Numbered from the stretch's first letter, positions 2,463 to 32,000 are shown. The stretch is 32,000 nt of DNA from Halomicronema hongdechloris C2206 (GCF_002075285.3 NZ_CP021983.2:2130001-2162000); one strand, 5' to 3'. Notes: generated by a model not told the origin, from the letters alone. Numbers and translations: made by a program.

Positions 2463-3558
2463 ATGATTCAAGCGAATGACTTAGAGACTAACTTGGAGAC
2501 CAATTGCCGTTTTTGCTCGCTGGTCTCCAAAGCCAATGGCCAAGACCCCATCGGCTCTGCCGGTACCTATCACCACTGGCTGATCGTAGAGATCCCTCAA
2601 CCTTGGCCCACCACCATCTGGCAAGAGCATCCCATCGTGGCGCCAGTGCTACAAATGGTCAAGGCCTTGCGCCAGCAGGGGGTCTATGTGCGCCCATTGA
2701 TGATTGCCCCGGAGCGTGACTATTCTCACCCCGACTTCACCCGGGTTCTCTACTATCGCCGTCCCCAAGCATGTTTTACTGCCTTTGAAAAGCAAGAGTT
2801 TCTCCTTCCCCCCTCAGAGGTTGTTCCCCTGGCCACCGCCTTACTGCAACAGCCCGCCGCTCTCCCCCAGTTCGAGGCCTACCGCCAACCCACCCAGCAT
2901 CTCCGCGAACTCTTCGTCTGCACCCACGGCAACGTCGATGTCGCCTGCTCCCGCTTTGGCTATCCCATTTATCAGCAGTTGAAAAAAACCTATGCGGTCG
3001 AGTGGAAGCCTGAATCCCCCCCTCCCCCCCTCCCCATCGCCCCCACTCAAAACTCAAAACCCAAAACTCAAAACTTCCCCCACCCCCCTCCGCGTCTGGC
3101 GCTGCTCCCATTTCGGTGGCCATAACTTTGCCCCTACTCTCATCGACCTACCGACGGGACACTATTGGGGGCATCTAGAACCTGATGCTCTCGATGCCCT
3201 AGTCTATCGTCAAGGAGATGTCCAGCAACTGCGGCGCTTTTATCGCGGCTGGAGTGGCCTGCGGCGCTTTGAGCAGATGGTGGAGCGAGAGCTGTGGATG
3301 CAGCACGGCTGGGATTGGTTGAGCTATGGTAAAGTCGGCCAAACCCTGGCCATGGATACCCCCCAGGAGGATGAGTATGATGCCGACTGGGCCGAGGTGC
3401 GCATTGACTTTGAAGCCCCAGATGGTTATGAGGCTGGTGCCTATGCAGCCCGGGTGGAGGTGGCTGGCGAGGTGCTAACCCAGTGGCGATCGGGAGAAGA
3501 GCATCCTTTAGAGCCGGTGAAGCAATACCAAGTCACTCAGTTGCATCGTGTCGCCTAA
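2463..3558 (+). pseudogene. sucraseferredoxin-like (thioredoxin-like 2Fe-2S) family protein, frameshifted as assembled
   Basis: ORF 2463-3125 carries CTHGNVDVACSRFG. ORF 2992-3558, in a different frame, carries SHFGGHNFAPTLIDLP. These are the two halves of the Sucrase_ferredoxin signature. The frames switch inside the poly-C / heptamer tract at 3016-3090. Confidence 0.7.
3016..3090 (+). repeat. almost G-free low-complexity insert: two C7 runs plus (ACTCAAA)x4 heptamer array
   Basis: Sequence is CCCCCCCTCCCCCCCTCCCC...ACTCAAAACTCAAAACCCAAAACTCAAAAC...CCCCCACCCCCC. The heptamer array is at 3045-3072. Confidence 0.8.
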
Positions 3559-6307: not shown

Positions 6308-6922
6308 ATGACCATCGCGATCAACCCACCAACATTGACCATTGACGAGTTTCTTGCCGGTTACGGTGATGATAATCGCTATGAACTGATCGATGGAGAG
6401 GTATTCGACTTGGAACCGACAGGGCCACATGAAGAAGTAGCCGCCTTCATCACCAGCAAGATCTGTGTCCAGATCGATCTGCAAGGGTTGCCTTGGTTTG
6501 TCCTGCAACGCGGACTATTACGCCCTTCTGGCATGGGTAACACAGCATTTCGACCTGACGTTGCAGTGGTTGATCGAAATGAACTGGCAAAAGAACCATG
6601 TTGGATGGAACAATCGATGCTGACCCTAGGTAGCTCGATTAAATTTGTAGCAGAAGTCGTCAGTAGCAACTGGCAGAATGATTATGCCCGTAAGACTGAA
6701 GATTATGCGGCGTTAGGCATTCCTGAATATTGGATTGCAGATTATGCTGGCTTAGGGAGGACTCGATATATTGGGAAACCCAAGCAACCCACCCTTTCTA
6801 TGGGTATCCTGGTGCATGGAGAGTATGAGGTTCACCAGCTGCGTGGTTCTCAAAATGTCGTTTCACCCACGTTTCCGAGTTTGAATTTAACGGCTGAGCA
6901 GGTATTGAAAACTGGTCGATAA
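6308..6922 (+). CDS. Uma2 family endonuclease (DUF820)
   Basis: 204 aa with YELIDGEV, FRPDVAVVD, FVAEVVSSNW and the GIPEYWIADY pattern typical of Uma2/DUF820. Confidence 0.8.
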   Translation: MTIAINPPTLTIDEFLAGYGDDNRYELIDGEVFDLEPTGPHEEVAAFITSKICVQIDLQGLPWFVLQRGLLRPSGMGNTAFRPDVAVVDRNELAKEPCWMEQSMLTLGSSIKFVAEVVSSNWQNDYARKTEDYAALGIPEYWIADYAGLGRTRYIGKPKQPTLSMGILVHGEYEVHQLRGSQNVVSPTFPSLNLTAEQVLKTGR

Positions 6923-6957: not shown

Positions 6958-7560
6958 CTACTCCTCAGCTGTCAAAATCTGCTCCACCGTCAACCCCAAC
7001 TCCGGAAACGTCAGACACGGCACTGCCTCCCCCTCCACATATTCCGCCTTCTGATAAACCCCATCCTCCAGCGTCAGCACAATTACCTTCTTGCCCTTCC
7101 CCCGCTGGCAATACTTCGCCGGAATTTGTCCCCGATAATCCACAATCCAGTACTCCGGCACCTGTAGCGCCTCGTATTCTTCCTGCTTCTCCACCAAGTC
7201 CGTACTCCAGTTTCCAGAGGCAATCTCCACAATCATCCGAGGAACGCTGCGAATCCCCGGTTGCCGATCCTCTCGCCGCGTTGCAGGACGATCAATCACC
7301 GCAATATCGGGGCGGCGTCCTCTAACATCGTCAATCATCAACGCATTGCGCTGCCGCACTGAGTATCTCAGCGTCATGCGCCGATACTGTAGCTCAAACA
7401 TAAACGAGAGGAACTCTAGAATCTCTTCATGCCAATCATCCGGCTCCGGCATGAGCACCAACCTCCCATCGACCAATTCATATTCATTGAGTTCATTGCC
7501 ATCCTCCACGTCAATGAACGCTTCAAACGTCAAGTCTCGTGTGGCAGCCGGAATCATCAT
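6958..7560 (-). CDS. Uma2 family endonuclease (DUF820)
   Basis: 200 aa with YELVDGRLVLMPEP, RRPDIAVIDR, IVEIASGNW and VPEYWIVDY. It is convergent with the paralog at 6308-6922. Confidence 0.8.
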   Translation of the reverse strand: MMIPAATRDLTFEAFIDVEDGNELNEYELVDGRLVLMPEPDDWHEEILEFLSFMFELQYRRMTLRYSVRQRNALMIDDVRGRRPDIAVIDRPATRREDRQPGIRSVPRMIVEIASGNWSTDLVEKQEEYEALQVPEYWIVDYRGQIPAKYCQRGKGKKVIVLTLEDGVYQKAEYVEGEAVPCLTFPELGLTVEQILTAEE

Positions 7561-8150: not shown

Positions 8151-8223
8151 TGGAGAATAGGGGATTCGAACCCCTGACCTCTGCGGTGCGATCGCAGCGC
8201 TCTACCAACTGAGCTAATTCCCC
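8151..8223 (-). tRNA. tRNA-Ala (anticodon CGC)
   Basis: The reverse complement is GGGGAATTAGCTCAGTTGGTAGAGCGCTGCGATCGCACCGCAGAGGTCAGGGGTTCGAATCCCCTATTCTCCA. The cloverleaf folds by hand, with a G3:U70 Ala identity pair, U33, anticodon CGC and A37. CCA is not encoded. Confidence 0.92.
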
Positions 8224-9103: not shown

Positions 9104-9973
9104 TCTAGAGGGCAGGCGGCGTCAGGTCGCTGCTACTAGGGTATCGGCTATGGGCATCTCCTGGGGGGTAGGGGGGTGGCTTGAGCCCGTGGGTAACCTG
9201 GTTAATTAGCCATACCGTGTCACTGGTGATGTGGTCAAAACCCCCGCCGCCCCCAGCCAGGCGGCTACGGTGCCCTGGGCAAATTCCTGAATGTAGGGCT
9301 CTTCGAAGATCTCCATCAGCCAGGGCAGAGCTCGTAGGGTGTCTCGGGGTTGCCGTCTAGGATGGCTACCTCACCACTGGGGCGCAACAGCCGAAAGGCT
9401 TCTCGCAGGATGGTCTGGGCGACCTCAGTAGGGGTCTCATGGAAGAGCAGAGAGGCGGTGACTAGATCGAAGTGAGCCGCTGGAAAGGGGGTGTGGTTCG
9501 GCGTTGCCGTGGACCCAGTGAATGGCTAGATTGGCCTGACGGGCCTTGTCCTCGGCGACGACCAACATATGGGGCGACAGGTCCAGCCCGATCACCTCGG
9601 CAGCGGGAAAGGTTTGCTTCAGCAAGTGGGTGGTGGTGCCGGTGCCGCAGCCCAGATCTAGAATGCGGCGGGGCTGTCCCTGAATCTTGTCGATTAGGGC
9701 CTGGCGCACCCAGGTTTCATTGGGGGGCAGGACGTACTGGGTGATGGGATCGTAGGTGACGGCGGCATCGGCGCTGAGATAGCCCTGCTCAATGCCATGG
9801 AAGGCGGCCTTGCGATAATAGTCTGGATAGGTCAGCTTAGGGTTGGCAATGCGATCGCATTGTTGCTCCCAGTCAAACTGGTGTCGATAGGCCAGCAAGG
9901 CCTCCCGATCCAAGAGGTGATCGAACAGAGGCGCCAAAAATCGAGCGAATAACGTATCTTGACCGGTTGCCAT
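9104..9973 (-). pseudogene. class I SAM-dependent methyltransferase, at least 3 frameshifts as assembled
   Basis: ORF 9437-9973 carries ILDLGCGTGTTT. The continuation (AAHFDLVTASLLFHETPTEVAQTILREAFRLLRPSGEVAILDGNP, then LPWLMEIFEEPYIQEFAQGTVAAWLGAAG, then DHITSDTVWLINQVTHGL) is found in the other two frames. Breaks are at ~9487-9491, ~9329-9350 and ~9237-9245. The 3' end is uncertain. Confidence 0.7.
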
Positions 9974-12244: not shown

Positions 12245-13163
12245 ATGATGGACTTACGAGGGGAGTTGGCGGCCCTGGGGGCTGCTTTTTTATGGGCGTT
12301 GGCGACGGTCATGTTTGGCCAGTTGGGCAAACAGCTTGCTCCCCTGGTGCTAAATCTGGTCAAGGGATTATTGGCGATTAGCCTGATTGGTCTAACCCTT
12401 GCTGTGCAAGCGCTCTATCAGCCCCAGGACCCTTGGCAGATCAGGAGTGGGTTGGAGCAAGGGTCTGTGCTGCTGTTGCTAGGCAGTGGTGTGATTGGCA
12501 TTGGCCTAGGGGATACGGCCTATTTTACGGCGCTCAATTATCTGGGGGCCCGGCGGGTGCTGTTGCTAGAGTCCTTGGCGCCGGCCATGGCTGCCCTGAT
12601 GGCCTTAGGATTTTTGGGAGAATATCTGGCCCTGAGGGATTGGCTGGGCATTGTCTTAACGCTGTTGGGGGTGAGTTGGGTAGTTTCTGAGCGAGCTCCC
12701 GGTATCCCTGGGGAATCATTCCAACCCTGGCGGGGTATCTGCTATGGCTGTTTAGCAGCCGTTGGGCAGGCTGTCGGAGCAGTCATGTCACGGGCGGCTT
12801 TGGCAGACACGGCGGTCGATCCCCTGTGGAGTACGCTGTTGCGGCTGGGGGGTGGGTTGAGCATCATGGGAATATTGTTGCCTGAGGGGAGGGCAGTGGC
12901 GCTATCAACTGCGCCTCCTAGCCTCGGGTCGGCTGCTGGGGGTGTTGATGGTGGCGGCGTTTATAGGCACCTATCTGGCCCTGTGGTTGCAGCAGATGGC
13001 CCTGAAGTATGCTGCCACGGGAATTGCTCAAGCGCTGCTGGGCACGAGTCCACTATTTATTTTGCCGATCGTGGTCTTACTGGGCGAGCGCGTCAGTCTC
13101 CGAGCTATCTTGGGGGTGCTAGTGGCCCTGGGGGGTGTCTGGCTCCTGGTGGGCTATGACTAG
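12245..13163 (+). pseudogene. EamA/DMT family transporter, one frameshift as assembled
   Basis: ORF 12245-13159 reads as transmembrane protein up to ~12885. ORF 12942-13163 (extendable upstream in its own frame to QWRYQLRLLASGRLLGVLMVAAFIGTYLALW) gives the second EamA half, ending GGVWLLVGYD. The switch is at the G runs at ~12885-12895. Confidence 0.7.
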
Positions 13164-15528: not shown

Positions 15529-17772
15529 CTACTCTTTCTGCAGGACTTCGGCAAACTCCAAATCCTCTGAGGCCAGGACAAATATGGTGCCGGGTAATCC
15601 GGCAGTGCGCTGTTGCAGGGAGAGATAGTACTGGCTGAAGTGTTCATTGGGAGTGGCTAAGCCCAGAAATACTAAATCAGCCGTTTCAGAGGACTGCTTC
15701 AAAATGGTGTCAAAGGGCCGGCCCTCCGCCAGAATCACCCGGGGGGTAGCGCCAATACGTAGACCATCGACGAGCCGCTGCAGGTTAGTCTGGGCTGCCT
15801 TTGCTGCCGCTTGATTGGGCACCACCAGGTTGAGGCGGATCTCTACCCCACGCCAGGTAAGACTGGTGCGTAGCAGATAGGCCAAAATCAACATCAGTCC
15901 CCCATTGGCCTGGAGTCCGCCCCACCAGACATCAATGCGGCGATAGTGAGGAGGGCGACGGCGGCTTAGCTCATAGGTCTGGGGCTCGCCGCGAAAAATA
16001 ATCACATTGCGCTTGCCTGGTGACAGCGGCTAATCAGCTGGCAGAAGCGATCGCAACTCTGGGGATTTTCCGTATCCCCCAGCATCACCGTATTCGGCAT
16101 CAGGGGACCAATGCCGTAAGACTCCACCAGCTGTCCCATGCCGCCGAAGGGTTCTGCCGCCGTAATCAACCGCACAAACGCCTGGATCCCTCGCCGCTCC
16201 AGATACTCCTGTAGGGGTCGCCTCCATGCCCTCCTGCTGGGCGCCACTACGAGATCTAGGGGGCAACACACTCGACACCGTAAATAGGCCCCGATTGTGG
16301 GTCAGGGCGGCCGCCAATTCAATCAAATGCCAGCGCTTCGTCGGGGCCCCCGAGAAGACCAGCAAATGGGGGCGCCAGTTTTTGGCATCCAAAGCCCCCT
16401 CAATGCGGAATAAGGCCGTACGCACCAAACTCATCCACAATCCCTGGCGCACATCCCCCCAGGCGCTCTCCAGCTCCCGCCGCTCCAGCCATAGGTAAAT
16501 CAACAGCACGATCACCGCTGCCGCCACTGTGGCTACAGCATTGATCAAAAACATCACCGTCAGACACCCCGCTGCCCCCAGTAACGAGAGCGACCAGTGC
16601 ACCTTAAACGTCGGTCGAAAAGACGGACTCTGCAGAAACCCTTCCAAACCAGCTGCCACATTCAACACCATGTAGGTGGTCAAGAAAAACATGGTCAGCA
16701 CCGGCGCAATCAGGTTTAAATCGCCGATGGAGACAGCCACCAAGACAATGCCCAGGGTAAACAGGGTGCCCAGCCGCGGCTCATCTCCTTCGCGACTCCC
16801 ATGGCCCAACCACCGCAGTCGCCGCGGTAAGATACCGTCTCGAGCCAGGGCCTGTAATACCCGAGGTGCCCCCAAGATGCTACCAATAGCACTAGATAGA
16901 GTGGCCCCCCACACCCCCAGTAGAATGGCATCGCCCCACAGGGCAATGCGCCGCATCACCAAGGGGTCGGCTACCAGGGTGGTCGGGTCAGCCCGCAGGC
17001 TGAGAATGACGGGAATAATCATATAGATCACATAGCCGCTGCCGATGGCAGCCAGGGTGCCGATGGGGATGGCCTTGCTGGGTTTTTTCAAATCCCCCGA
17101 CATGTTGACCCCCGACATAATGCCCGTCACCGCTGGGAAGAACACCGCTAGCACCGTCCAAAATCCCACCGAGCCGGGAGGCTCTGGGGAGGGTAACTCC
17201 GTGGGCGTGATGCTATGGCCCATAGCCAGAGAAACCAAGGAAAGGACAATGGCGGCCATGATGAAATATTGAGCCTTAATGGCAATTTCGGCCGATTTCA
17301 GAGCCAACGCGGTCACCAGCACCGTCGTCATCAGGGCTACCAGGGTTTGATCGAGTCGGGGAAATACCCGCACCAGACTCTCGGCAAAGCCGATGGTGTA
17401 GAGAGCCACCGAGAGCCCCTGGGCAAAGTAGAGGGGAATGCCCACGGCGCCCCCGGTTTCAATGCCAAGGGAGCGGCTAATCATGTAATAGGCCCCGCCA
17501 GCCCGTACCACCTGGTCAGTGGCGATGGCCGAGATGGATAGCCCGGTGAGAAAGGTAATCCCGGTGCAGATGGTCACCACCAATAAGGTCTGCACCAGCC
17601 CCACATGACCCAGTACCCAGCCGAAGCGTAGGTACATGATCACCCCGAGAATCGTCAGAATTGACGGGGTGAATACTCCGCCAAAACTAGTCAGCTTCTT
17701 GGCTCCTGCCTCTGTATCGGGCGTTGCTGCGCCTTGCTCCATACGTCGCCGTGGCATGGTAGAGCGATCCAT
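15529..17772 (-). pseudogene. SLC12-like cation:chloride cotransporter / amino acid permease family, at least 2 frameshifts as assembled
   Basis: ORF 16030-17772 gives the transmembrane domain (KLTSFGGVFTPSILTILGVIMYLRFGWVLG). The cytosolic C-terminal domain continues in ORF 16002-16271 (LQEYLERRGIQAFVRLITA...PNTVMLG) and ORF 15529-16005 (NVIIFRGEP...). Breaks are at ~16215-16270 and ~16010-16025. Confidence 0.75.
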
Positions 17773-18700
17773 AGGTTGACCCTGTCATCATGCCGGAAGA
17801 TCCCGGCTGCGGCTAGGCTTAGCCGGTACAGTCTGCCTGATATTTACCGTTCATCTCAGGTTTCAGAGCTTCCCCGGATTAGCTGTTTCAGCAATAAATC
17901 GACGGATCCGCTGTGACTCCGTTGTTGGTCTTGGTCAGTAGTCCGATCAGACCGGTTGGGATGTCGACGACCTCAGTGCAGCCGTTTCGCTCAATGGCGA
18001 TACCCCTGCAACGGCTGCTTCAGGACCAGTTCGACCGTTTAGGAGCTGCCTATACTTCAACGTCGAGGATGTCGACCGCCTATCCCCAGGCTCGGATTGT
18101 CGCTGAGCAGGGACAGCTGGCTCTAGAGCTTTATCAGCCCTTTACTAGGCTGGCCCAGATGATGATGGGGTATGCGCCCTTAACCTTCGCGGTGTAGTGT
18201 GCGATCGCATGATGCCAGGAATACCTGAATGGTATCGGCTCTAACCTTCTGAGTAGATGCGATCGCTAATCGCTGTAGAGCCAGTTCGGGAAGCCAATCG
18301 CTGATTTGGCATGTCCTAACCTGGCTGACTACAGCTATAAGCAGTAACGATCTCAGGTTTGCCAGGCCCCTTGGAGGGTCAATCGGGAACCCGTTCATGG
18401 TCAAGCCAAACCAGTACATGTTTAAACAAGGCCAACTTTGTTTAAAGCCGGACCCATTCATGGTCAGAAGTAACGATTTCCCGTCTTTGAGCTCCCCTAC
18501 AAGGTGCCCTACGGCTGATTTCGCCAGCGTATCAGCATTGGGGGGCTAGGGGGGGTCTTCAGTCGGTAGAGTCTTTTCGAGAAAACACCTTAGATGCGGC
18601 GGGCATCACTCTGGAAGTGACTGGTAAAGGCAATGCACAATCTCTGCGTCTAGATTATCATCGCGCTACAATCGTCTTACTGAGTAAGAAATTTATTGTT

Positions 18701-18961
18701 ATGCCTACTGTTACCGTTTCCGACAAAGGTCAGGTTGTCATTCCGGCAGCCATTCGCAAACAGCTGGGAATTACCCCTGGTAGCCAACTCACCTTTACGT
18801 TGGAAGGCAACACCATTCGGGTCGAAGTCAAACGTCATAAGCCGACCACCACAATCGACGAAGGCTTCGGCATGTTGGTTTGTCCCCCCGGACCTGCCAG
18901 ACGATTACAAGACTTTGACATCGCCCAGGCTATGCGAGAAGACAATCATGAACGCCCTTGA
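18701..18961 (+). CDS. vapB: AbrB/MazE/SpoVT-family antitoxin (VapB-like)
   Basis: MPTVTVSDKGQVVIPAAIRKQLGITPGSQLTFTLEGNTIRVE is a SpoVT-AbrB fold signature. It overlaps the PIN gene by 14 nt. Confidence 0.8.
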   Translation: MPTVTVSDKGQVVIPAAIRKQLGITPGSQLTFTLEGNTIRVEVKRHKPTTTIDEGFGMLVCPPGPARRLQDFDIAQAMREDNHERP

Positions 18962-19379
18962 TACCAACATTCTGGCTCGGTTCTATGTTGATGACCCCAA
19001 CGACCCAGAAGCCCAATGGCAACGCCCTCTGACTCGCAAAGTTTTGGCCGAATCCGCCAGTGTGTTTGTGCCGCTCTCAGTCATTCTGGAACTGGAATGG
19101 GTGCTACGTGCCTTTTATGGCTTCGGTTGCCAAGACTTTGTTCAAGTGATTCGTCATTTGCTGGGGTTACCCCACGTCACGATCGAGCATTGGGAACGGG
19201 TCGCTGACGCGCTCGAATGGCACCTACAGGGTTTAGATTGGGCCGATGCTCTACATTTGGCCGCCAGTCGCCATTGCGAAAATCTGATGAGTTTTGACGA
19301 TAAACGCTTCGCCCGCCGAGCCCAAAGATTAAAATTAAAGCCATCTGTATTAGTTCCAGGGGAATCAGGAGGGGAGTGA
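18948..19379 (+). CDS. vapC: PIN-domain ribonuclease toxin (VapC-like)
   Basis: Starts MNALDTNILARFYV (first acidic residue) and carries ILELEWVL, WADALHLAAS and SFDDKRF. The ATG at 18948 is in the same frame as track ORF 18696-19379. Confidence 0.8.
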   Translation: MNALDTNILARFYVDDPNDPEAQWQRPLTRKVLAESASVFVPLSVILELEWVLRAFYGFGCQDFVQVIRHLLGLPHVTIEHWERVADALEWHLQGLDWADALHLAASRHCENLMSFDDKRFARRAQRLKLKPSVLVPGESGGE

Positions 19380-21691: not shown

Positions 21692-22224
21692 GGCTCCTTG
21701 GCGTATCGCCACTTTCAAGATGCCAAGGTTACCGAGGCAGCCACATCACCCGCGCGGGTACTCTTGCCAAGCCATGGATCGTTGATTGGGTATGGCATGT
21801 AGTAATTGCAACTAGGAGACAGCAGTGGATTCCCCCAGGAACTGCCCCATCAGTTTCTGGAAAGATGGGTAGGCCCCCTTTCCTAGGGCAATGTCGGTGA
21901 TGATGACTGGTACGCTGCGGCAGAAATAACGCCTCTATTGACTAGCGCGGCAAGGCTGCATTTATCAGGTCTCCCTTTCTGCTTTGGCATACCTGGGGCA
22001 ATGACCAGCGGTGGCTGACGCCGCTCTGGGTAGTGTGGCGCTGGCCCAATGTACCAGAAGCCGGTAATATACCCTACTTAACTGGGCCCATCTTCAGGGA
22101 GTCGATAGCACCACTGCAGAGACGGTGGCCCGGTGTCATCGGGGTTGATGGTCTGGACACGTTATTGTCAGGCTATTGGCATCGGTTTGTTGTCTGTAGA
22201 GTTGCCCTGTAGAGAGGTTTACCG

Positions 22225-24771: not shown

Positions 24772-24813
24772 GTAACCGTTGATACCCCACCTAGGCCATG
24801 ACCTTGCTAGAAA
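24772..24813 (+). promoter_or_regulatory. candidate NtcA-type promoter (GTA-N8-TAC plus -10 box)
   Basis: GTAACCGTTGATAC at 24772-24785, then 22 nt, then TAGAAA(T) at 24808-24814. This is canonical class II NtcA geometry, ~70 nt upstream of the riboswitch aptamer. Confidence 0.4.
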
Positions 24814-24885
24814 TAGTGGCAAGTATTGCCTGCCCATGGGCCATACGGAGCGACGCCAACTAAATACTCGGAAGTGAATGGGTTT

Positions 24886-25048
24886 CTAGGGTTCCGACTC
24901 TCCAGCTTCAGCTCTAGAGGTGTCAGCTGTCAGGGTGTCTGGTCCGAGAGAAACCGCCAGAGAGCAGCGTATCGTTGCTGAAATAGACATTCTCCAGCAA
25001 GATGCTGGCTGCTCATCTGGTACACGGCGGGATAAAAGCCCGGGAGGG
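24886..25048 (+). promoter_or_regulatory. guanidine-I riboswitch aptamer (ykkC-yxkD class)
   Basis: All three conserved blocks are present in order: CTAGGGTTCCG (24886-24896), GGTCCGAGAG (24941-24950) and ACACGGCGGGATAAAAGCCCGGGAG (25022-25046). P1a and P2 are longer than usual; for example the CCAGCA-aga-TGCTGG hairpin lies inside P2. Confidence 0.88.
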
Positions 25049-25089
25049 AGTACGGAGGCCACTTCGTCTACCTTCCGGGTCTTTAATTT
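25039..25089 (+). terminator. riboswitch expression platform: terminator stem that competes with the aptamer 3' strand
   Basis: CCCGGGAGG (25039-25047) pairs with CCTTCCGGG (25071-25079), giving 9 bp including one G-U. TCTTTAATTT follows. The 5' arm is part of the conserved GCCCGGGAG aptamer block, so this is ON-switch logic. Confidence 0.6.
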
Positions 25090-25132
25090 GGCGGCCCTTT
25101 TATCCCCTGACTGTAGAATTCGCCGTCTAACC

Positions 25133-26314
25133 ATGAGTGACCCCCCTATTTTTGAACCTCCCGATAGCTCAACAGAAGCCCAACGCTCCCTGTCGCAGGA
25201 AGCCCAGCTGCCCTTAACCGGCTGGCAACAGGAAGTCGACCGGGGCCTAGAATATGGCCTGGAGGCTGCCGCCAGCATCCAAGACCGTAGCATCTCCACC
25301 TTCTCCCGGGGGGAACTGCCCCATTTCGCCGGCATCAATACCTTCCTTAAGGCTCCCTATCTAGAAGATGTACGCCAAGTGGGCAACTACGATGCCGCCA
25401 TCGTCGGCGTGCCCCACGACTCCGGCACCACTTACCGCCCCGGCACTCGCTTTGGCCCCCAGGGGATTCGCCGCATTTCCGCCCTCTATACCCCTTACAA
25501 CTTCGAACTAGGTGTCGATCTGCGGGAGCAAATCACCCTCTGCGACGTGGGCGATATTTTCACCATTCCGGCCAACAACGAGAAGTCCTTCGATCAGATT
25601 TCCAAGGGCATCGCCCACATCTTCAGTGCCGGTGTCTTCCCCATCGTTTTGGGGGGCGATCACTCCATCGGCTTTCCCACCGTGCGCGGCATCTGTCGCC
25701 ACCTGGGAGACAAAAAGGTCGGCATCATCCACTTCGACCGTCATGTGGATACCCAAGAAACCGACTTGGATGAGCGCATGCACACCTGTCCTTGGTTCCA
25801 CGCCACCAATATGGCCAATGCCCCGGCTAAAAATCTGGTGCAACTGGGCATCGGCGGTTGGCAGGTGCCCCGCCAGGGCGTGAAGGTGTGCCGGGAACGA
25901 GCCACCAATATCCTCACCGTGACCGATATCACAGAGATGGGGTTGGACAACGCCGCCACCTTCGCCCTAGAGCATGCCCTCGACGGCACCGACTGTGTCT
26001 GGATTAGCTTCGACATCGACTGCATCGACGCTGGTTTTGTCCCCGGCACGGGCTGGCCAGAGCCTGGCGGACTGCTACCCCGGGAAGCCTTATATCTACT
26101 GAAGAAAATCGTCCAGAATGCCCCCGTCTGTGGCCTGGAAGTGGTGGAGGTGTCACCCCCCTACGACATCAGCGACATCACGGCCCTGATGGCGACTCGG
26201 GTCATCTGCGACACCATGGCTCATTTAGTCCTCTCAGGCCAGCTGCCCCGGACAGCGACTCCGGCCTATATCCAGGCCGACGCCAACCTCAATGTTGACC
26301 AGCAGTGGCGGTAA
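25133..26314 (+). CDS. gdmH: arginase/ureohydrolase-family protein, GdmH-like Ni-dependent guanidine hydrolase (often annotated agmatinase SpeB2)
   Basis: 393 aa from the ATG at 25133. Contains LGGDHSIGFP, HFDRHVDT, SFDIDCIDAGFVPGTGWPEPGG and GLEVVEVSPPYD. The context of a guanidine-I riboswitch upstream and hypA/hypB-like genes downstream mirrors Synechocystis sll1077-1079 as I recall. The track start at 24920 would read through the riboswitch. Confidence 0.8.
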   Translation: MSDPPIFEPPDSSTEAQRSLSQEAQLPLTGWQQEVDRGLEYGLEAAASIQDRSISTFSRGELPHFAGINTFLKAPYLEDVRQVGNYDAAIVGVPHDSGTTYRPGTRFGPQGIRRISALYTPYNFELGVDLREQITLCDVGDIFTIPANNEKSFDQISKGIAHIFSAGVFPIVLGGDHSIGFPTVRGICRHLGDKKVGIIHFDRHVDTQETDLDERMHTCPWFHATNMANAPAKNLVQLGIGGWQVPRQGVKVCRERATNILTVTDITEMGLDNAATFALEHALDGTDCVWISFDIDCIDAGFVPGTGWPEPGGLLPREALYLLKKIVQNAPVCGLEVVEVSPPYDISDITALMATRVICDTMAHLVLSGQLPRTATPAYIQADANLNVDQQWR

Positions 26315-26317
26315 CCC

Positions 26318-26689
26318 ATGCACGAAACGGACATGACTAAGGCCCTGATTCTGACCGTGCGTGACTGGTGGCAATCCCAACCGCAGCGCCAGGCCATCGC
26401 CAAAATTCATCTGAGCGTGGGCCAGTTTACCTGTGTGGAACCAGCCAGTCTGCAGTTTGCCTTCCAGGTGCAAACCCACGGCACCTGGTTGGCCGAGGCC
26501 GAGTTAGTGATTCAAGAGACGCCCCTGATCGCCTTCTGCCATCCCTGTCAGAGCGAGTACACTCCGGAAATCGGTCACCACTACGCCTGCCCCATCTGTC
26601 ACGCCCCCATGGAGGATATTCGCTCCGGTCGAGAGCTTAAAATCGACCGGGTGGAATACGCCTCGCCTACCCCTACTGCCACCCCGTGA
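26318..26689 (+). CDS. hypA: HypA-family nickel metallochaperone (GhaA-like accessory protein)
   Basis: Has the MHE N-terminal Ni-binding motif and the Zn site CHPC...CPIC. It starts 3 nt after the hydrolase stop. Confidence 0.85.
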   Translation: MHETDMTKALILTVRDWWQSQPQRQAIAKIHLSVGQFTCVEPASLQFAFQVQTHGTWLAEAELVIQETPLIAFCHPCQSEYTPEIGHHYACPICHAPMEDIRSGRELKIDRVEYASPTPTATP

Positions 26690-26695
26690 TCTGCC

Positions 26696-27386
26696 ATGCA
26701 TCAACCCCTTGACGACGCCCTCGGCATTAACCTGCTCCACGCCAATCAAGCTGGTGCCGACCATAATCGGGCCCATTTGGACCAATGGGGCATGACCTGC
26801 CTCAATCTGATGAGCGGCCCCGGTGCCGGTAAAACTGCCTTGCTAGAGCAAACCCTGGCCCAGCTCAGCCCTGAGCTCTCTATAGCCGTGGTTGAAGGAG
26901 ACATGACCACCGAACTCGATGCCGATCGGCTGCGGCAGTACGGCGTCCCCGTGATTGCCATCAATACCGGCCGGGCCTGCCACTTAGATGCCCGCATGGT
27001 GGCAGGAGGGCTGCATCAATTGGCTGAGCTCCATAGCCCCAATGACATTGACCTGTTGGTGGTGGAGAACGTGGGCAATCTCGTCTGTCCGGCTGAGTTT
27101 GAGGTGGGGGAACACGCCAAGGTAGCGCTGCTCAGCGTCACCGAAGGGGCTGATAAACCCCTGAAATACCCGGTCATGTTTCGGGAAGCCGATGTGCTGC
27201 TGATTACCAAGATTGATTTGCCCCCTATCTAGATGTGGATCTGGCTGAGATGGAGGCCAATGTGCGGCAGGTGAATCCTGGGTTGCCGTCATGCCTCTGT
27301 CGGCCAAGACCGGGCAAGGGTTAGCCCCCTGGTTGATGTGGCTGCGGCAGATAGTCAAGGCCCGGGCTCAGACCGTTGCCGTTTAA
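26696..27386 (+). pseudogene. hypB: HypB-family Ni-binding GTPase (GhaB-like), 2 frameshifts near the C-terminus as assembled
   Basis: Contains [24 protein letters not shown] and ITKIDL. After 27221 the expected [22 protein letters not shown] and then VMPLSAKTGQGLAPWLMWLRQIV are found in the other two frames. Breaks are at C5 (27221-27225) and ~27285-27290, with the stop at 27384-27386. Confidence 0.8.
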
Positions 27387-27419
27387 CACCCAGCCGTTAG
27401 CGCAAAGCAAGGAGGAGCA

Positions 27420-28469
27420 ATGCAACGACGCACCCTATTACCCCTACTCATGGCCTTCATCGGCGCCCTGTTGATTAGCGTCAGCTGCGCCCAATCAGGC
27501 CCGCAAACGACGGAGACGCCCACGGAGGAGACGCCCGCCGCCGAGACCGCTGCCCCCATCAAGATGGGCTACAGCAGTTGGGCCGGTTGGTGGCCCTGGG
27601 CCATTGCCGAGCAGGAGGGCCTATTCGAGAAGCATGGGGCCAATGTGGAGCTGATCTGGTTTGACGGCTATTTAGAGTCGATGCAGGCCCTGGCTTCTGG
27701 GCAATTGGATGCCAATTGCCAGACCCTAAATGACACCATTTCCTTTGCCGCCGATGCCGTCAACGGGGAAGTGGCAGTGCTCGTGAATGACAACTCCGCC
27801 GGGAACGACAAGGTGATCGTGGCTGCGGAGATTAACACCATCGAGGATCTCAGCGGCAAGACCGTTGCCCTGGAGGAAGGGGTTGTCGGTGACTTTCTGC
27901 TCACCCTGGCCCTGGAAGATGCTGGCATGAGTCGGGAAGATGTCACCATCAAAAACCTGGAGACTGGTGCCGCTGCCACTGCCTTCGCCGCCGGGCAGAC
28001 CGATGCCTTCGCCGGTTGGGTACCTTTTTGGGAAACGGCCCTGACCCGAGCAGGCAGTAAAGAGCTGTTGAGTTCGGCGGCATACCCCGGTGCTATCCCG
28101 GACCTGTTGGTGACTAGCCAGACCCTGATTGATGAGCAACCAGAGCAGGTGCAGGCCCTGGTGAATACTTGGTTTGATGTCCTGGCTTTCATGGCAGACA
28201 ACCCAGACCAGGCCAACGCCATCATGGCTAAGCGGGCCAATGTGGAGGACGACCAGTTTCAGAAGTACCTAGACGGCACCCGTTTCTTCACCCTAGAGGA
28301 GAACTTGGAGGCCTTCAGTGCCGGCGGCGAGGAGATGAAATATATGCCCTATGCCGCCGAACGCATGGCCGAGTTCATGGTGGAGGTCGGGTTTATCCCT
28401 GAGACTCCTGAGCTTGAGCCCATTCTGGATGATCAGTTCCTGCAGACCTATGCCAAGGCTCAGGCGTGA
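27420..28469 (+). CDS. ABC transporter substrate-binding lipoprotein, NitT/TauT (NMT1-like) family; probable guanidine-binding component
   Basis: 349 aa with GGAGG upstream of the ATG. It has a signal peptide with a Cys (LLISVSCAQSG) and the IKMGYSSWAGWWPW pattern typical of NitT/TauT substrate-binding proteins. Confidence 0.8.
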   Translation: MQRRTLLPLLMAFIGALLISVSCAQSGPQTTETPTEETPAAETAAPIKMGYSSWAGWWPWAIAEQEGLFEKHGANVELIWFDGYLESMQALASGQLDANCQTLNDTISFAADAVNGEVAVLVNDNSAGNDKVIVAAEINTIEDLSGKTVALEEGVVGDFLLTLALEDAGMSREDVTIKNLETGAAATAFAAGQTDAFAGWVPFWETALTRAGSKELLSSAAYPGAIPDLLVTSQTLIDEQPEQVQALVNTWFDVLAFMADNPDQANAIMAKRANVEDDQFQKYLDGTRFFTLEENLEAFSAGGEEMKYMPYAAERMAEFMVEVGFIPETPELEPILDDQFLQTYAKAQA

Positions 28470-28645
28470 AACGGGCATAGAGTTGTCCCGAGGGTGAGGA
28501 CTAGGAGCTAACGCACCGTCAATCCCCCTGGCTCTCGAGCTTGCCTGCCACTCCCCAGCCTATGCAACCTCGCCCGGTTGTCCCGTGATGTTATTTACCT
28601 AACCTCCCTTGGCAAATATTCCCCGTCGTCTCCCAGACCTTTGCA

Positions 28646-29491
28646 ATGTCTTCTGTTGCCCGGAATGCTCCGCCATCCATGACCACTACCGATCGCAGCC
28701 TGCAGCCCACCGTCTTCTGGCGTTTAGCCGAAGGTATTCCCCCAGGACTGAGCTGGTTGCTGATGGCCCTGTCGGTGCTGGTCCCGCTGTTGGCCTGGTT
28801 TTTGTTGTCTAACGCCGGGGTGATCAGTCCCCGCTTTTTACCCACGCCTCAGATGGTGGTAACGGCCCTGGGACGACTCTGGCAGCAGGGCTATCTGGGC
28901 CAGGATACCTTCGCCAGCTTCTTTCGGGTAATGGTGGGATTTTTGCTGGCCGGGCTGGTGGCGATCCCGGTAGGCATTGCCATGGGGGCTTTTGCCAGTA
29001 TTCGAGCCCTATTTGAGCCGATTATCGGCATCGTTCGCTACATGCCAGCCCCGGCGTTTATTCCGCTGCTGATTATCTATTTGGGGTTGGGGGAAACTCC
29101 GAAGGTGGCGCTGATTTTCATCGGTACGGTGTTCTACAACATTCTGATGATTATGGATGCGGTCAAGTTCGTGCCCAAGGACCTGATCGAGAGTACCTAT
29201 ACCCTAGGGGGCAACCGCCGTCAGGTGCTGTTTCAGGTGATTGTGCCCTATGTGGTGCCGAATATGTTGGATACCTTCCGCATCAATGTCGCCACTTCGT
29301 GGAACCTAGTGGTGGTGGCGGAGCTGGTGGCGGCTGAGGTGGGCCTGGGCAAGCGCATTGCCATTGCCCAGAAGTTTTTCCAGACCGATGAGATCTTTGC
29401 CTGCTTACTGGTGTTGGGGGTGATCGGGTTTTTACTGGACCTGTCTCTGCGTCTGCTGCTGCAAACCACCTGTAGATGGGCCATTGATTGA
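28646..29491 (+). CDS. ABC transporter permease (NitT/TauT family)
   Basis: 281 aa with multiple transmembrane segments and an EAA-like loop (ESTYTLGGNRRQVLFQVIVPYVVP). Confidence 0.8.
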   Translation: MSSVARNAPPSMTTTDRSLQPTVFWRLAEGIPPGLSWLLMALSVLVPLLAWFLLSNAGVISPRFLPTPQMVVTALGRLWQQGYLGQDTFASFFRVMVGFLLAGLVAIPVGIAMGAFASIRALFEPIIGIVRYMPAPAFIPLLIIYLGLGETPKVALIFIGTVFYNILMIMDAVKFVPKDLIESTYTLGGNRRQVLFQVIVPYVVPNMLDTFRINVATSWNLVVVAELVAAEVGLGKRIAIAQKFFQTDEIFACLLVLGVIGFLLDLSLRLLLQTTCRWAID

Positions 29492-29494
29492 CAT

Positions 29495-30286
29495 ATGCAC
29501 TTAGACATTGCCCAGGTTCACAAGCAATTTGCCACCCGCGGTGGGCCGTTGGTGGCCTTGCAGGATATCACGATGCAGGTGGAGACGGGGGAGTTTGTCT
29601 GTGCCGTGGGGGCCTCGGGCTCGGGTAAATCTACCCTGTTGCGGCTGATTGCTGGGCTGGAGCGGCCCACCAGCGGCACCATCTCTGTCGATGGACGGGG
29701 TGTGACAGGGCCAGGAGCTGACCGAGGCATGGTGTTTCAGAGCTATACTCTCTACCCCTGGATGACGGTACAGAACAATGTGGAGTTTGGCCTCAAGTTG
29801 CGAGGAATCTCGGCCCGGGAGCGGCGACAACAGGCCTCCTACTATCTGGAGATGGTGGGGCTGGCCCCTTTTGCCCGGGCACTGCCTAAGGAACTCTCGG
29901 GGGGCATGAAGCAGCGGGTTGCGATCGCACGGGCCCTAGCCAACCAGCCCAAGATTCTACTGATGGATGAGCCCTTCGGGGCCCTGGACGTGCAGACCAA
30001 GGAGACCATGCAGCAGTTTTTGCTAGAGCTGTGGCAGCGTCTAGGCATCAGCATTTTGATGATTACCCACGATGTGGCCGAGGCGGTGTTCCTGAGCCAG
30101 CGCATCTATGTGTTATCGGCCAGCCCTGGCACCATCGCCCGAGAGTTGAGCATCGACCTGGGCCAACGGCGGGACTACGGCATCCGTCGCAGCTCCCAGT
30201 TTCATCACTACTGCGAAGACATCATGGACCTGCTGCGGCAATCCCAACGGGCCACCTTTGGAGTGCCCCAGTCGATAGGACCATGA
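29495..30286 (+). CDS. ABC transporter ATP-binding protein (NitT/TauT family)
   Basis: Walker A GASGSGKST, signature LSGGMKQRVAIARAL and Walker B ILLMDEPFGALD. Confidence 0.88.
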   Translation: MHLDIAQVHKQFATRGGPLVALQDITMQVETGEFVCAVGASGSGKSTLLRLIAGLERPTSGTISVDGRGVTGPGADRGMVFQSYTLYPWMTVQNNVEFGLKLRGISARERRQQASYYLEMVGLAPFARALPKELSGGMKQRVAIARALANQPKILLMDEPFGALDVQTKETMQQFLLELWQRLGISILMITHDVAEAVFLSQRIYVLSASPGTIARELSIDLGQRRDYGIRRSSQFHHYCEDIMDLLRQSQRATFGVPQSIGP

Positions 30287-31367
30287 CGGGTGCCGGTTGC
30301 CCCTGTCCCGATACTTTTTTACTGCCGGCCCATCACTACACCGATGCCGCCTGGATGCAGCCGGAGTGCGATCGCATCTTCCGCCGCAGCTGGCAGTACC
30401 TGCCCCAGGCCGCCCTGTTACAACCGCCCCACACCTGCCTGGGCCTTGAGGTGGCCGGTGCGCCCCTGGTGCTCACCCGTGATGGTCAGGGCCACCTACG
30501 TGCCTTCTACAACGTCTGTCCCCACCGGGCCGCCCTGCTCTGCCCCACCTCAGGTCCCCACACCCAGAAGCACCTGGTATGCCCCTACCATGGCTGGACC
30601 TACGACCTAACAGGCCAGCTGGTGGGCCTTCCCAGGGGCGATCGCTTCTCCCCAGAAGTCCAGCCGCAAGATTATCCCCTCACCCCAGTGCGGCTGGAGC
30701 CGTGGCAGGGATTCTGGTTCCTCTGCCTCGATTTCCAAGCCCCACCCCTAGTGGAAGTGCTACAGCCTATCCCCCAGTGGATCCGTCAGCACCGTCGTGC
30801 CGGCAGCCAACCCCTGGTGCACAAGACCTACAGCGTGGCCTGCAACTGGAAGGTCTATCACGACAATACCCTCTGTGACTATCACGTGGCCATCGCCCAT
30901 CGCACCACCCTGCATAAGCTGCAAGGGCCGGTGCACCACTACCGCCACCATTTCCATCACTACGTCAACTGCCTCTATACCCCGACTCCTGCGGCTTGGC
31001 GAGACCGGCATCCCCGCCTTGAGGGCCTGGATGATGAGGCCGGCCACGGCTTCTATACCTTTGGCATCTTTCCCAACCTGCACTTGCTGGCCATGCCCGA
31101 TGGCGTGCTGGCCTGGATTCAGATTACGCCTCTGGCCGTCGATCGCTGCCAAGTCAGCCTCGATATCCACGGCATCCCTGGCCTCAGTCCCGCGGCAGAG
31201 ACCCTATTAGCCGACTTTGAAGCCTTCATGGCCGAGGATATGGCCATCACCCGCGGCGGTGCAGCGTGGTTACAGCAGTGGCTGCCACCCGTCCCGGTCC
31301 CGTGAATCAGCTGGAAGCCCGGATCGTGCATCAGCAACGGCTGATCTGGCAAGCATTGGCAGGGTAG
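30283..31367 (+). pseudogene. Rieske [2Fe-2S] non-heme iron oxygenase alpha subunit, choline-monooxygenase-like clade; 2 frameshifts near the C-terminus as assembled
   Basis: The ATG at 30283 overlaps the TGA of the ATPase gene (ATGA). Rieske motif: CPHRAALLC...CPYHGWTY. Mononuclear iron motif: NWKVYHDNTLCDYHVAIAH. The C-terminal AAVQRGYSSG and NQLEARIVHQQRLIWQALAG are found in the other frames, with breaks at ~31248-31256 and ~31285-31302 and the stop at 31365-31367. Confidence 0.75.
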
Positions 31368-31373
31368 CCGGTT

Positions 31374-31406
31374 TTCTGCATTGGGCGCGGCAACCGCGCC
31401 CCTACC
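31374..31406 (+). repeat. REP-like palindromic element (GGCGCGG-N3-CCGCGCC hairpin), copy 2; possible operon terminator
   Basis: TTCTGCATTGGGCGCGGCAACCGCGCCCCTACC matches the reverse complement of 3660-3692 at 31 of 33 positions. It begins 7 nt after the corrected Rieske stop. Confidence 0.6.
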
Positions 31407-31500
31407 CTATTCCCTATTCCGTTCTCCGCCCTCCCTTCGACTGCGTTGCTCCTACGGAGCCGCTTCGCGAACAGGGCAAGCCGTTCTCCGTTTTCCTTTT

Positions 31501-31594
31501 CCCCATCACCCCATCCACCTATCCACTCGTTCACTCGTCACTCGTCACTCGTCACGGGAAGCCGCTACCGCGTCTACACCCCATCACCCCATCA
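31501..31594 (+). repeat. short tandem repeats in a polypyrimidine-rich spacer: (CCCCATCA)x2, (CACTCGT)x4, (CCCCATCA)x2
   Basis: CCCCATCACCCCATCC at 31501-31516. CACTCGT at 31524-31530 and then three perfect tandem copies at 31532-31552. CCCCATCACCCCATCA at ~31578-31593. In addition, CCCTATT x2 at ~31404-31417 and CCGTTCTCCG occurs twice (31419, 31481). Confidence 0.8.
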
Positions 31595-31655
31595 CTCATC
31601 CACCCCCTCCCCGATTCGGCACAATAAAGACAGCCTTGCTGCCATTTCCCAGCCC

Positions 31656-32000
31656 TATGTCCCAACCTGAGTCTTCTACGTCTAACAGCATTGCCCTCTG
31701 GTGGGATACCCTGAGACCGCTGTCGCAATTGCTTGCGATCGCATTGGCTGCACCCCTAATTTTGCTGAATGCCTGGGCCTTTTCCCAGATCTTCGCCTAC
31801 TTCCGCTCCCTCTTCATTGCTGTGGTTATTGCAGCCCTGCTGGCCTTCTTGCTCAACTACCCCATTAGCTGGCTACAGCAACGGGGACTGGGGCGTGGGG
31901 CGGCGGCCGTCGTAGTGTTTCTGGTGGCGTTGGTGGGCTTTTTGTTGCTAGGCATTACCGTACTGCCCCTGGTGATCAGCCAAGCCCAGCAACTGGTGGC
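31656..32000 (+). CDS. AI-2E family transporter (PerM/UPF0118), N-terminal 115 aa; continues beyond the right edge
   Basis: My own translation from the ATG at 31656 gives MSQPESSTSNSIALWWDTLRPLSQLLAIALAAPLILLNAWAFSQIFAYFRSLFIAVVIAALLAFLLNYPISWLQQRG..., typical of the AI-2E family N-terminus. The frame is open to the window end. Confidence 0.7.

Follow-up and report, generated by a model that had tools for sequence, protein, structure and literature searches.

In Synechocystis sp. PCC 6803, the genes sll1077-sll1082 constitute the system gdmH-ghaA-ghaB-gimABC, which has NtcA promoters and a leader of the guanidine-I riboswitch class, RF00442 (Wang 2021, PMC8390497; PNAS 2025, PMC12704784, in which an article on the Synechocystis system, Funck 2022, Nature 603:515, is cited). 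It was reported that Sll1077 degrades guanidine, not agmatine (PMC8390497). GhaA and GhaB are nickel maturases in this organism, the gdmH promoter is NtcA-regulated, and RF00442 is a functional riboswitch in the Synechocystis orthologue (PMC12704784). The ATP-binding cassette (ABC) importer Sll1080-82 was named GimABC, and its binding protein GimA holds guanidine with a dissociation constant of 97 nM in a pocket formed by W59, W62, D135, F205 and D233 (PMC12704784). A second kind of guanidine operon, built around guanidine carboxylase, is extended in Vreelandella boliviensis by the MgdH/MgdL module for methylguanidine demethylation (PMC12508155). The locus described here is an operon of the first kind from the cyanobacterium Halomicronema hongdechloris C2206. 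It lies in a 32-kb stretch of DNA (the window, which is the whole stretch analysed; coordinates are counted from its start) and carries a gene for a Rieske oxygenase at its end.

The operon lies on the plus strand behind a guanidine-I riboswitch, and the list of open reading frames (ORFs) together with the family scans gave seven co-directional genes with six junctions (Table 1). The order is gdmH, ghaA, ghaB, gimA, gimB, gimC and the Rieske oxygenase gene, and in Pfam and NCBIfam the products belong to Arginase, HypA, HypB, an NMT1/SsuA-type binding protein, BPD_transp_1, ABC_tran and Rieske with Ring_hydroxyl_A. An initial annotation, made from the sequence alone, had named the same families in the same order, though it counted eight genes; its intergenic gaps of 3, 6, 33, 176 and 3 nt and its ATGA overlap between gimC and the Rieske gene (30283-30286) are all correct. 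Judged by these short gaps and the overlap, the seven genes are probably co-transcribed.

Set beside sll1077-sll1082, as had been suggested at the outset, the operon shows the same order, which recurs in related cyanobacteria. The likeness covers gene order and families, the GdmH sequence, an aptamer directly upstream, an NtcA box and the GimA pocket. The locus differs in its seventh gene, the Rieske gene, which overlaps the gimC stop, in a gap of just 33 nt between ghaB and gimA with no separate gimA promoter evident, in aptamer loop insertions of 30 and 54 nt, and in a ghaB that is frame-broken as assembled. The core operon is an already characterised system (published 2021-2025) and the Rieske extension is its unexplained part; the "extra Rieske oxygenase" of the initial annotation is indeed the sole uncharacterised component. 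With high confidence, the locus is read as a nitrogen- and guanidine-controlled operon for the use of free guanidine as a nitrogen source, and the interpretation first given to it is supported, those of the checks suggested with it that could be run all agreeing with it. Computation supplied the sequence identities, the riboswitch motif with its fold, the conserved gene order and the finding that the Rieske gene recurs; the activities and the control by NtcA and the riboswitch are taken from the Synechocystis literature. The published guanidine system, including the NtcA box and a riboswitch of the terminator type, is thus conserved in a chlorophyll-f cyanobacterium.

Table 1. Features of the guanidine operon of H. 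hongdechloris C2206, in window coordinates
Feature	Position	Strand	Basis and remarks
Candidate NtcA-activated promoter	24772-24813	+	NtcA box GTAACCGTTGATAC (24772-24785), 22 nt, -10-like TAGAAA (24808-24813)
Guanidine-I riboswitch aptamer (RF00442)	24875-25048	+	cmscan 75.2 bits against a gathering score of 63, E 7.6e-12
Expression platform	25039-25089	+	Predicted intrinsic terminator hairpin (25039-25079), then U-rich tract UCUUUAAUUU (25080-25089)
gdmH, Ni-dependent guanidine hydrolase, Sll1077 clade of the arginase family, 393 residues	25133-26314	+	PDB and Pfam matches
ghaA, HypA-like nickel metallochaperone, 123 residues	26318-26689	+	TIGR00100, Pfam HypA
ghaB, HypB-like GTPase, 230 residues when corrected	26696-27386	+	TIGR00073; two single-base deletions as assembled
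gimA, periplasmic guanidine-binding protein (NitT/TauT, NMT1 type), 349 residues	27420-28469	+	TIGR01728, Pfam
gimB, ABC permease, 281 residues	28646-29491	+	Pfam BPD_transp_1, E 1.9e-25; syntenic in 42 loci
gimC, ABC ATPase, 263 residues	29495-30286	+	Pfam ABC_tran, E 1.2e-34
CntA-like Rieske non-haem-iron monooxygenase, alpha subunit only, 360 residues when corrected	30283-31367	+	Start overlaps the gimC stop (ATGA)
GC-rich hairpin GGGCGCGG-CAA-CCGCGCCC, candidate operon end	31383-31401	+	16 nt past the Rieske stop, no U tract

The best PDB match of GdmH is Sll1077 (7esr/7oi1), which aligns over the full length with an E value of 2e-239 and is identical at 338 of 390 positions (86.7%). It is followed by a chain deposited as "Putative agmatinase 2" (9fek_A, E 2e-175), and beyond these top two chains the matches drop to proclavaminate amidinohydrolase (E 3e-47) and the E. 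coli-type agmatinases (about 1e-35). The protein therefore groups with Sll1077 and not with the agmatinases, as had been annotated initially, and in the alignment its metal-ligand motifs GGDHS, DRHVD and DIDCID are the same as those of Sll1077. Pfam Arginase is matched with an E value of 1.7e-76, and the protein stays under both NCBIfam agmatinase cut-offs, in the case of TIGR01230 barely (174.0 against 174.3). This near miss, together with matches to the Pfam models Arginase, HypA and HypB and to the SsuA-family model of NCBIfam, is what speaks for a different reading of the locus, in which the first gene encodes an agmatinase (SpeB) serving polyamine synthesis, HypA and HypB serve a hydrogenase, and the transporter takes up sulfonates or nitrate. 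That reading is effectively refuted by the close identity to guanidine-specific Sll1077, which does not degrade agmatine (PMC8390497), compared with the remote matches to true agmatinases, by the guanidine-I riboswitch in front of the gene and by the conservation of the guanidine-pocket residues in GimA. Moreover, no hydrogenase or urease genes were found in the window, where Pfam was run on some 20 of the largest ORFs lying outside the operon and the remainder were only read as translations; the initial statement that structural genes for neither enzyme lie nearby agrees with this. An annotation as "agmatinase plus hydrogenase maturation" is wrong for this locus. The system has been published in detail, so it does not amount to a mis-annotated novelty.

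The two maturase genes follow gdmH directly. GhaA scores 113.2 bits with TIGR00100 (cut-off 88.1) and matches Pfam HypA with an E value of 2.9e-29; its translation has the N-terminal MHE motif and two CxxC pairs. GhaB reaches 245 bits with TIGR00073 (cut-off 121) in the form of its 178-residue assembled ORF, which places the pair in the HypA and HypB families. The arrangement was examined in a sample of 80 species-representative gdmH loci: hypA and hypB adjoin gdmH in 62 of the 69 that could be evaluated, and three ABC genes follow in 42 loci.

The importer genes come next. GimA scores 279 bits with TIGR01728 and also matches Pfam NMT1_2 and NMT1. A search with GimA did not recover Sll1080, there being no Synechocystis protein among the top 120 matches, and the pocket residues were therefore matched by a constant offset of -5 and by conservation, not by alignment to Sll1080. 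Matched in this way, W54, W57, D130 and D228 are present and are invariant in 46 binding proteins linked to gdmH; position 200, which corresponds to F205 of Sll1080, has W in this protein and varies between F and W among these homologues. Both a guanidinium pocket and an ABC gene trio downstream of ghaB are thus found. GimC shares 62-79% identity with the ATPases encoded in gdmH-linked loci. The 176-nt spacer between gimA and gimB gave no significant RNA structure (z +0.42), no Rfam match and only an NtcA-like site with one mismatch, and it was therefore treated as an ordinary spacer.

Upstream of the riboswitch, a motif scan of the window found that GTAACCGTTGATAC is an exact match to GTA-N8-TAC. 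The window contains four such exact boxes where about two are expected, a count which is not significant, so it is the position that matters. A box of this type upstream of the aptamer was also seen in the related loci L085, L084, L168 and L037, and in the alignment of these with the window a candidate -10 element follows 22 nt after the box in all five, with a hexamer beginning with TA in four of them. Position 24772, from which the initial annotation counted the operon, is the first base of this NtcA box; the aptamer begins at 24875. A scan with the sigma-70 consensus found no promoter-like site on the plus strand, a kind of search that is uninformative for cyanobacterial promoters of the NtcA type. 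Two further exact boxes (22064-22077 and 22209-22222) are intergenic, beyond the 3' end of the minus-strand cobQ gene. Nothing better than a site with one mismatch, at 27194 inside ghaB, was seen that could serve gimA as an internal NtcA site, and it is unconvincing.

The RF00442 match spans model positions 1-107 of 107, so that the gathering score is exceeded over the full model. According to Rfam, it is the only cis-regulatory RNA in the window. Its core nucleotides are invariant in an alignment with five relatives, and the unusually long insertions (30 nt and 54 nt) lie in two terminal loops. With 174 nt it is the longest of the aptamers compared, the relatives having 103-152 nt; the excess corresponds to the two loop insertions. 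A guanidine-I riboswitch was found upstream of gdmH in 11 of 12 relatives tested.

Directly 3' of the aptamer, the predicted terminator hairpin has a folding energy of -32.7 kcal/mol (z -4.5), none of 200 shuffled sequences folds as well, and it is present in the minimum-energy fold too. The 3' strand of aptamer helix P3 doubles as the 5' arm of the hairpin, which makes the two structures competitors. An equivalent stem is located 3' of the aptamer in L084, L168, L037 and L165, and a U-rich tract follows it in most of these. Sharing of the P3 strand by a terminator is the usual geometry of an ON switch, and hence the leader probably acts as a transcriptional ON switch. Given an NtcA box followed by a leader with riboswitch and terminator, dual control is likely, in which nitrogen limitation would open the promoter and guanidine would open the leader.

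At the other end, the GC-rich hairpin past the Rieske gene has about -17 kcal/mol and a weak z of -1.6, and the next gene begins near 31658; the hairpin may mark the end of the operon. Non-coding DNA past the Rieske gene (31405-31595) contains the short tandem repeats CCCTATT (2.3 copies), CACTCGT (4.4 copies) and CACCCCAT (2.4 copies).

In the resulting model, transcription would start at the NtcA-type promoter. When guanidine is absent, the leader would fold into the terminator and transcription would stop; when guanidine is bound, the aptamer would keep the shared strand in P3, the terminator would be blocked and the genes would be read. GimABC would take up guanidine when little of it is present outside the cell. 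GdmH, once GhaA and GhaB had supplied it with nickel, would hydrolyse the guanidine to urea and ammonium, an activity and a requirement that are taken from the Synechocystis literature. Several observations weigh against this model. No urease gene is among the window ORFs scanned or read. In Synechocystis, gimABC has its own promoter, unlike the arrangement here with its short gap between ghaB and gimA. GhaB as assembled is without the G5 motif and the C-terminus, and the assembled Rieske protein is without its C-terminal helix. If the breaks in ghaB were real, GdmH could not be matured in this organism.

As assembled, ghaB does not have an intact frame; it ends at a stop at 27232 after 178 residues. 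One G is missing at 27220, and at 27280-27282 GGG is found in place of GGGG. With tblastn, using the homologues of L037 and L058, it was seen that the gene reads on in frames +2, +1 and +3, and the corrected GhaB of 230 residues can be aligned with homologues over its whole length (73-74% identity). The Rieske ORF similarly stops at 31305 after 340 residues, there being one extra C in each of the C runs 31250-31252 and 31288-31290. Intact homologues show that it reads on in frames +1, (+2) and +3 (tblastn), and the corrected protein of 360 residues likewise aligns end to end. The initial annotation gave the two genes the ends 27386 and 31367; the assembled ORFs stop short of these, which can be reached only by two frame changes per gene that it had missed.

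Each of the four breaks alters the length by a single base at or beside a short run of G or C. The window has at least four more broken genes, unrelated to these: a Suc_Fer-like gene (2463-3558, plus strand) is split into ORFs 2463-3125 and 2992-3558, a transporter of the SLC12/amino-acid-permease type (15529-17772, minus strand) is split into 16030-17772 and 15529-16005, a methyltransferase (9437-9973, minus strand) ends mid-domain, and an EamA transporter (12245-13159, plus strand) retains one of its two repeats. The genome was assembled from 17x 454, 14x PacBio RS and 36-bp Solexa reads (PMC6416890). The location of the breaks at G and C runs, the other broken genes and the use of 454 and early PacBio reads therefore indicate that the four frame breaks are very probably homopolymer sequencing errors.

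Taken at face value, four frame breaks in two of seven genes would instead mean that the operon is decaying, with ghaB and the Rieske gene as true pseudogenes, a GdmH left without nickel and no use of guanidine by H. hongdechloris; the public record of the Rieske protein is also the truncated form of 340 residues. Such decay is very unlikely, since every break is a one-base change next to a short run of G or C, since frames are broken likewise in the Suc_Fer-like, SLC12-type, methyltransferase and EamA genes elsewhere in the 32 kb, and since coverage by 454 and early PacBio reads was low. Furthermore, the out-of-frame stretches, once corrected, encode conserved sequence without stop codons. 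This genome record probably contains many homopolymer frame errors, and apparent pseudogenes in it are not to be trusted.

The product of the seventh gene matches Pfam Rieske and Ring_hydroxyl_A and is 100% identical to the public H. hongdechloris C2206 protein. Across 31 family members there is no variation in the Rieske ligands C79, H81, C100 and H103 (CxH...CxxH) or in the iron-site residues H201, H206 and D319, and both motifs, the Rieske ligands and the 2-His-1-Asp site, align with those of CntA, so that both cofactor sites are present. A profile of the family matched CntA over nearly the full length (E 5e-48). An AlphaFold model (pLDDT 86.8) gave CntA (TM score 0.74) and the stachydrine demethylase Stc2 as its top Foldseek matches. 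Identity to CntA is only 23-24%, and the best NCBIfam model, GbcA, is matched with 103 bits against a cut-off of 670, values that do not indicate orthology. From its sequence and predicted structure, the protein resembles the Rieske monooxygenases of quaternary amines and falls outside any named family. CntA (PDB 6y8j/6y9c) and Stc2 (3vca/4qup) are alpha-only Rieske monooxygenases acting on quaternary amines, and like them the enzyme has a small subunit (about 360-370 residues) with no gene for a beta subunit. Unlike CntA, it has no CntB-type reductase gene adjacent to it, and its context is guanidine rather than carnitine or betaine. It is proposed that the gene is translationally coupled to gimC and constitutes an optional add-on to loci of this type.

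The genomic surroundings of the family were compared in 15 contexts, the window included, which were picked by sequence length and not by gene content. In six of them (the window, L037, L058, L084, L165 and L168, the last from Leptothoe kymatousa and with an intact Rieske orthologue), the Rieske gene follows gimC in a gdmH operon. It also follows gimC in L085, where a guanidine-I riboswitch heads the operon and a type III glutamine synthetase replaces gdmH-ghaAB. In L083, L166 and L172 it is found beside guanidine-carboxylase/DUF1989 operons that have their own guanidine-I riboswitch. The remaining contexts show a NitT/TauT transporter only (L081, L167, L169 and L171) or a P450 gene (L170). 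Altogether, 14 of the 15 adjoin a NitT/TauT-type ABC transporter and 10 of the 15 adjoin gdmH, guanidine carboxylase or a guanidine-I riboswitch. The association thus holds for two unrelated chemistries of guanidine degradation, an argument for linking the Rieske enzyme functionally to guanidine. A metagenome scan with the Rieske alignment used patterns that were too general: in 78 of 80 loci the Rieske proteins were remote (27-39% identity), which left L085 and L086 as the useful ones.

Locus L085 (contig VFQR01000110.1, 4989-12057) has the order NtcA box, guanidine-I riboswitch, type III glutamine synthetase, gimABC, Rieske gene and a gene for an HRI1-like protein of 279 residues. A guanidine riboswitch here drives an operon without a known guanidine-degrading enzyme. 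Its upstream neighbours are those of the window too, namely cobQ (77% identity) and an Npun_F0494-like gene (52% identity).

The contexts can also be explained by the Rieske gene being a passenger without a guanidine role, which accompanies transporters of the NitT/TauT type and whose product would use a different cationic compound brought into the cell. The Rieske gene is missing from 36 of 37 evaluable gdmH-gimABC loci; in L081, L167, L169 and L171 there is an ABC transporter and no guanidine enzyme nearby, and in L170 the gene adjoins a P450 and an EamA gene. The binding proteins of L081, L083, L166, L167 and L171 are, moreover, just 23-29% identical to GimA. These divergent proteins nevertheless retain the Trp, Asp, Asp and aromatic positions of the pocket, two thirds of the contexts (10 of 15) are guanidine-linked across both degradation chemistries, and in L085 a riboswitch-headed operon pairs the type III glutamine synthetase, gimABC and the Rieske gene without gdmH. 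A passenger role is possible, though its probability is put well below even.

For a role in guanidine supply, it may tentatively be suggested that the family consists of cyanobacteria-centred, ferredoxin-dependent oxygenases which release guanidine from its N-alkyl derivatives, methylguanidine being an example; the probability assigned to this specific function is low. CntA and Stc2 oxidise a C-H bond next to a cationic nitrogen, whereupon the product falls apart, and the same reaction on an N-alkylguanidine would set guanidine free. The enzyme would hydroxylate the carbon next to the guanidine nitrogen of a substituted guanidine, which would give free guanidine and an aldehyde. Its plausible role would be that of an oxidative N-dealkylase which feeds the guanidine pathway and widens the range of usable substrates. 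The electrons could possibly be supplied by a cyanobacterial ferredoxin.

The nearest parallel is the MgdH/MgdL module. In both cases an oxygenase gene extends a riboswitch-led guanidine operon that also encodes an ABC importer, and the chemistry of that module, hydroxylation of the N-methyl carbon to give guanidine and formaldehyde, is what is proposed for the Rieske enzyme too. MgdH belongs to the 2-oxoglutarate/Fe(II) dioxygenases, has a lyase of its own and is followed in the pathway by guanidine carboxylase, whereas a Rieske enzyme and GdmH are found here. If the suggestion is right, the enzyme would be the Rieske-type counterpart of the 2-oxoglutarate-dependent MgdH, and the Rieske enzyme with its ABC importer would be a feeder module attached independently to the GdmH and the guanidine carboxylase routes. 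The sources of guanidine in the environment and in cells and the guanidino compounds that microbes can use are named as open questions in recent reviews, and a conserved oxygenase family beside both kinds of guanidine-degradation operon offers a concrete enzyme to test.

A number of points count against release of guanidine by the Rieske enzyme. After gimC, the gene occurs in one (L037) of the 37 evaluable gdmH-gimABC loci, L058 being cut by a contig end, and in five of the 15 Rieske contexts there is no guanidine enzyme within 9 kb. Among the ORFs of the window, which were read for it, there is no dedicated reductase gene. A lyase candidate is not evident among the seven genes of the operon, where MgdL itself was not searched for, and the Rieske neighbours of about 280 residues, considered as a possible lyase, have no homologue of either of their two types in the window. 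Finally, riboswitches of the guanidine-I class reportedly discriminate against methylguanidine and are specific to guanidine (PMC12508155), so methylguanidine could not itself switch on the leader. In the searchable library, no literature was found that links Rieske oxygenases to guanidine operons, guanidine riboswitches or methylguanidine.

The proteins of about 280 residues are encoded beside the Rieske gene in L083 (7084-7935), L166 (8102-8932), L085 (11218-12057) and L086 (1706-2023). They fall into two types, that of L083 and L166 and that of L085 and L086; the similarity they share is short and N-terminal, and one of the types gives a weak Pfam HRI1 match.

In aniline dioxygenase-type systems, a gamma-glutamyl ligase resembling glutamine synthetase works with a Rieske oxygenase. 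Similarly, a type III glutamine synthetase of the 435-residue type (TIGR03105) shares a cluster with the Rieske gene in L084, L165, L085, L083, L166 and L081. An obligate pair of this kind was rejected for the window, because it has no glutamine synthetase-like gene and because the type III enzyme occurs without a Rieske gene in L005, L050, L052 and L065. In several gdmH operons, a type III glutamine synthetase (453 residues; TIGR03105 597 bits against 470) is encoded between ghaA and ghaB; such loci are L005, L050, L052, L065, L084 (2266-3627) and L165 (3780-5215). The enzyme could assimilate the ammonium released, or could ligate glutamate to an amine.

In the metagenomic locus L081 (4688-13449), the Rieske gene is clustered with genes for an AsnC regulator, a divergent NMT1 protein, a glutamine synthetase-like protein and a creatininase-family protein. 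ABC genes, an SDR, RidA and a BiuH-like hydrolase of the isochorismatase family belong to the cluster too. The gene set gives the impression of a pathway that serves a different nitrogen-rich compound.

Elsewhere in the window, two adjacent convergent genes of the Uma2 family (putative, restriction endonuclease-like) are located at 6308-6922 on the plus and 6958-7560 on the minus strand. A gene for tRNA-Ala(CGC) is present at 8151-8223 (minus strand), and a small antitoxin-like ORF overlaps a PIN-domain gene at 18617-19379 (plus strand), as in pairs of the VapBC type. In a related metagenome-assembled genome (L005, 3815-4563, minus strand), four tandem copies of the nitrogen-stress small RNA NsiR1 are located about 5 kb upstream of the gdmH operon.

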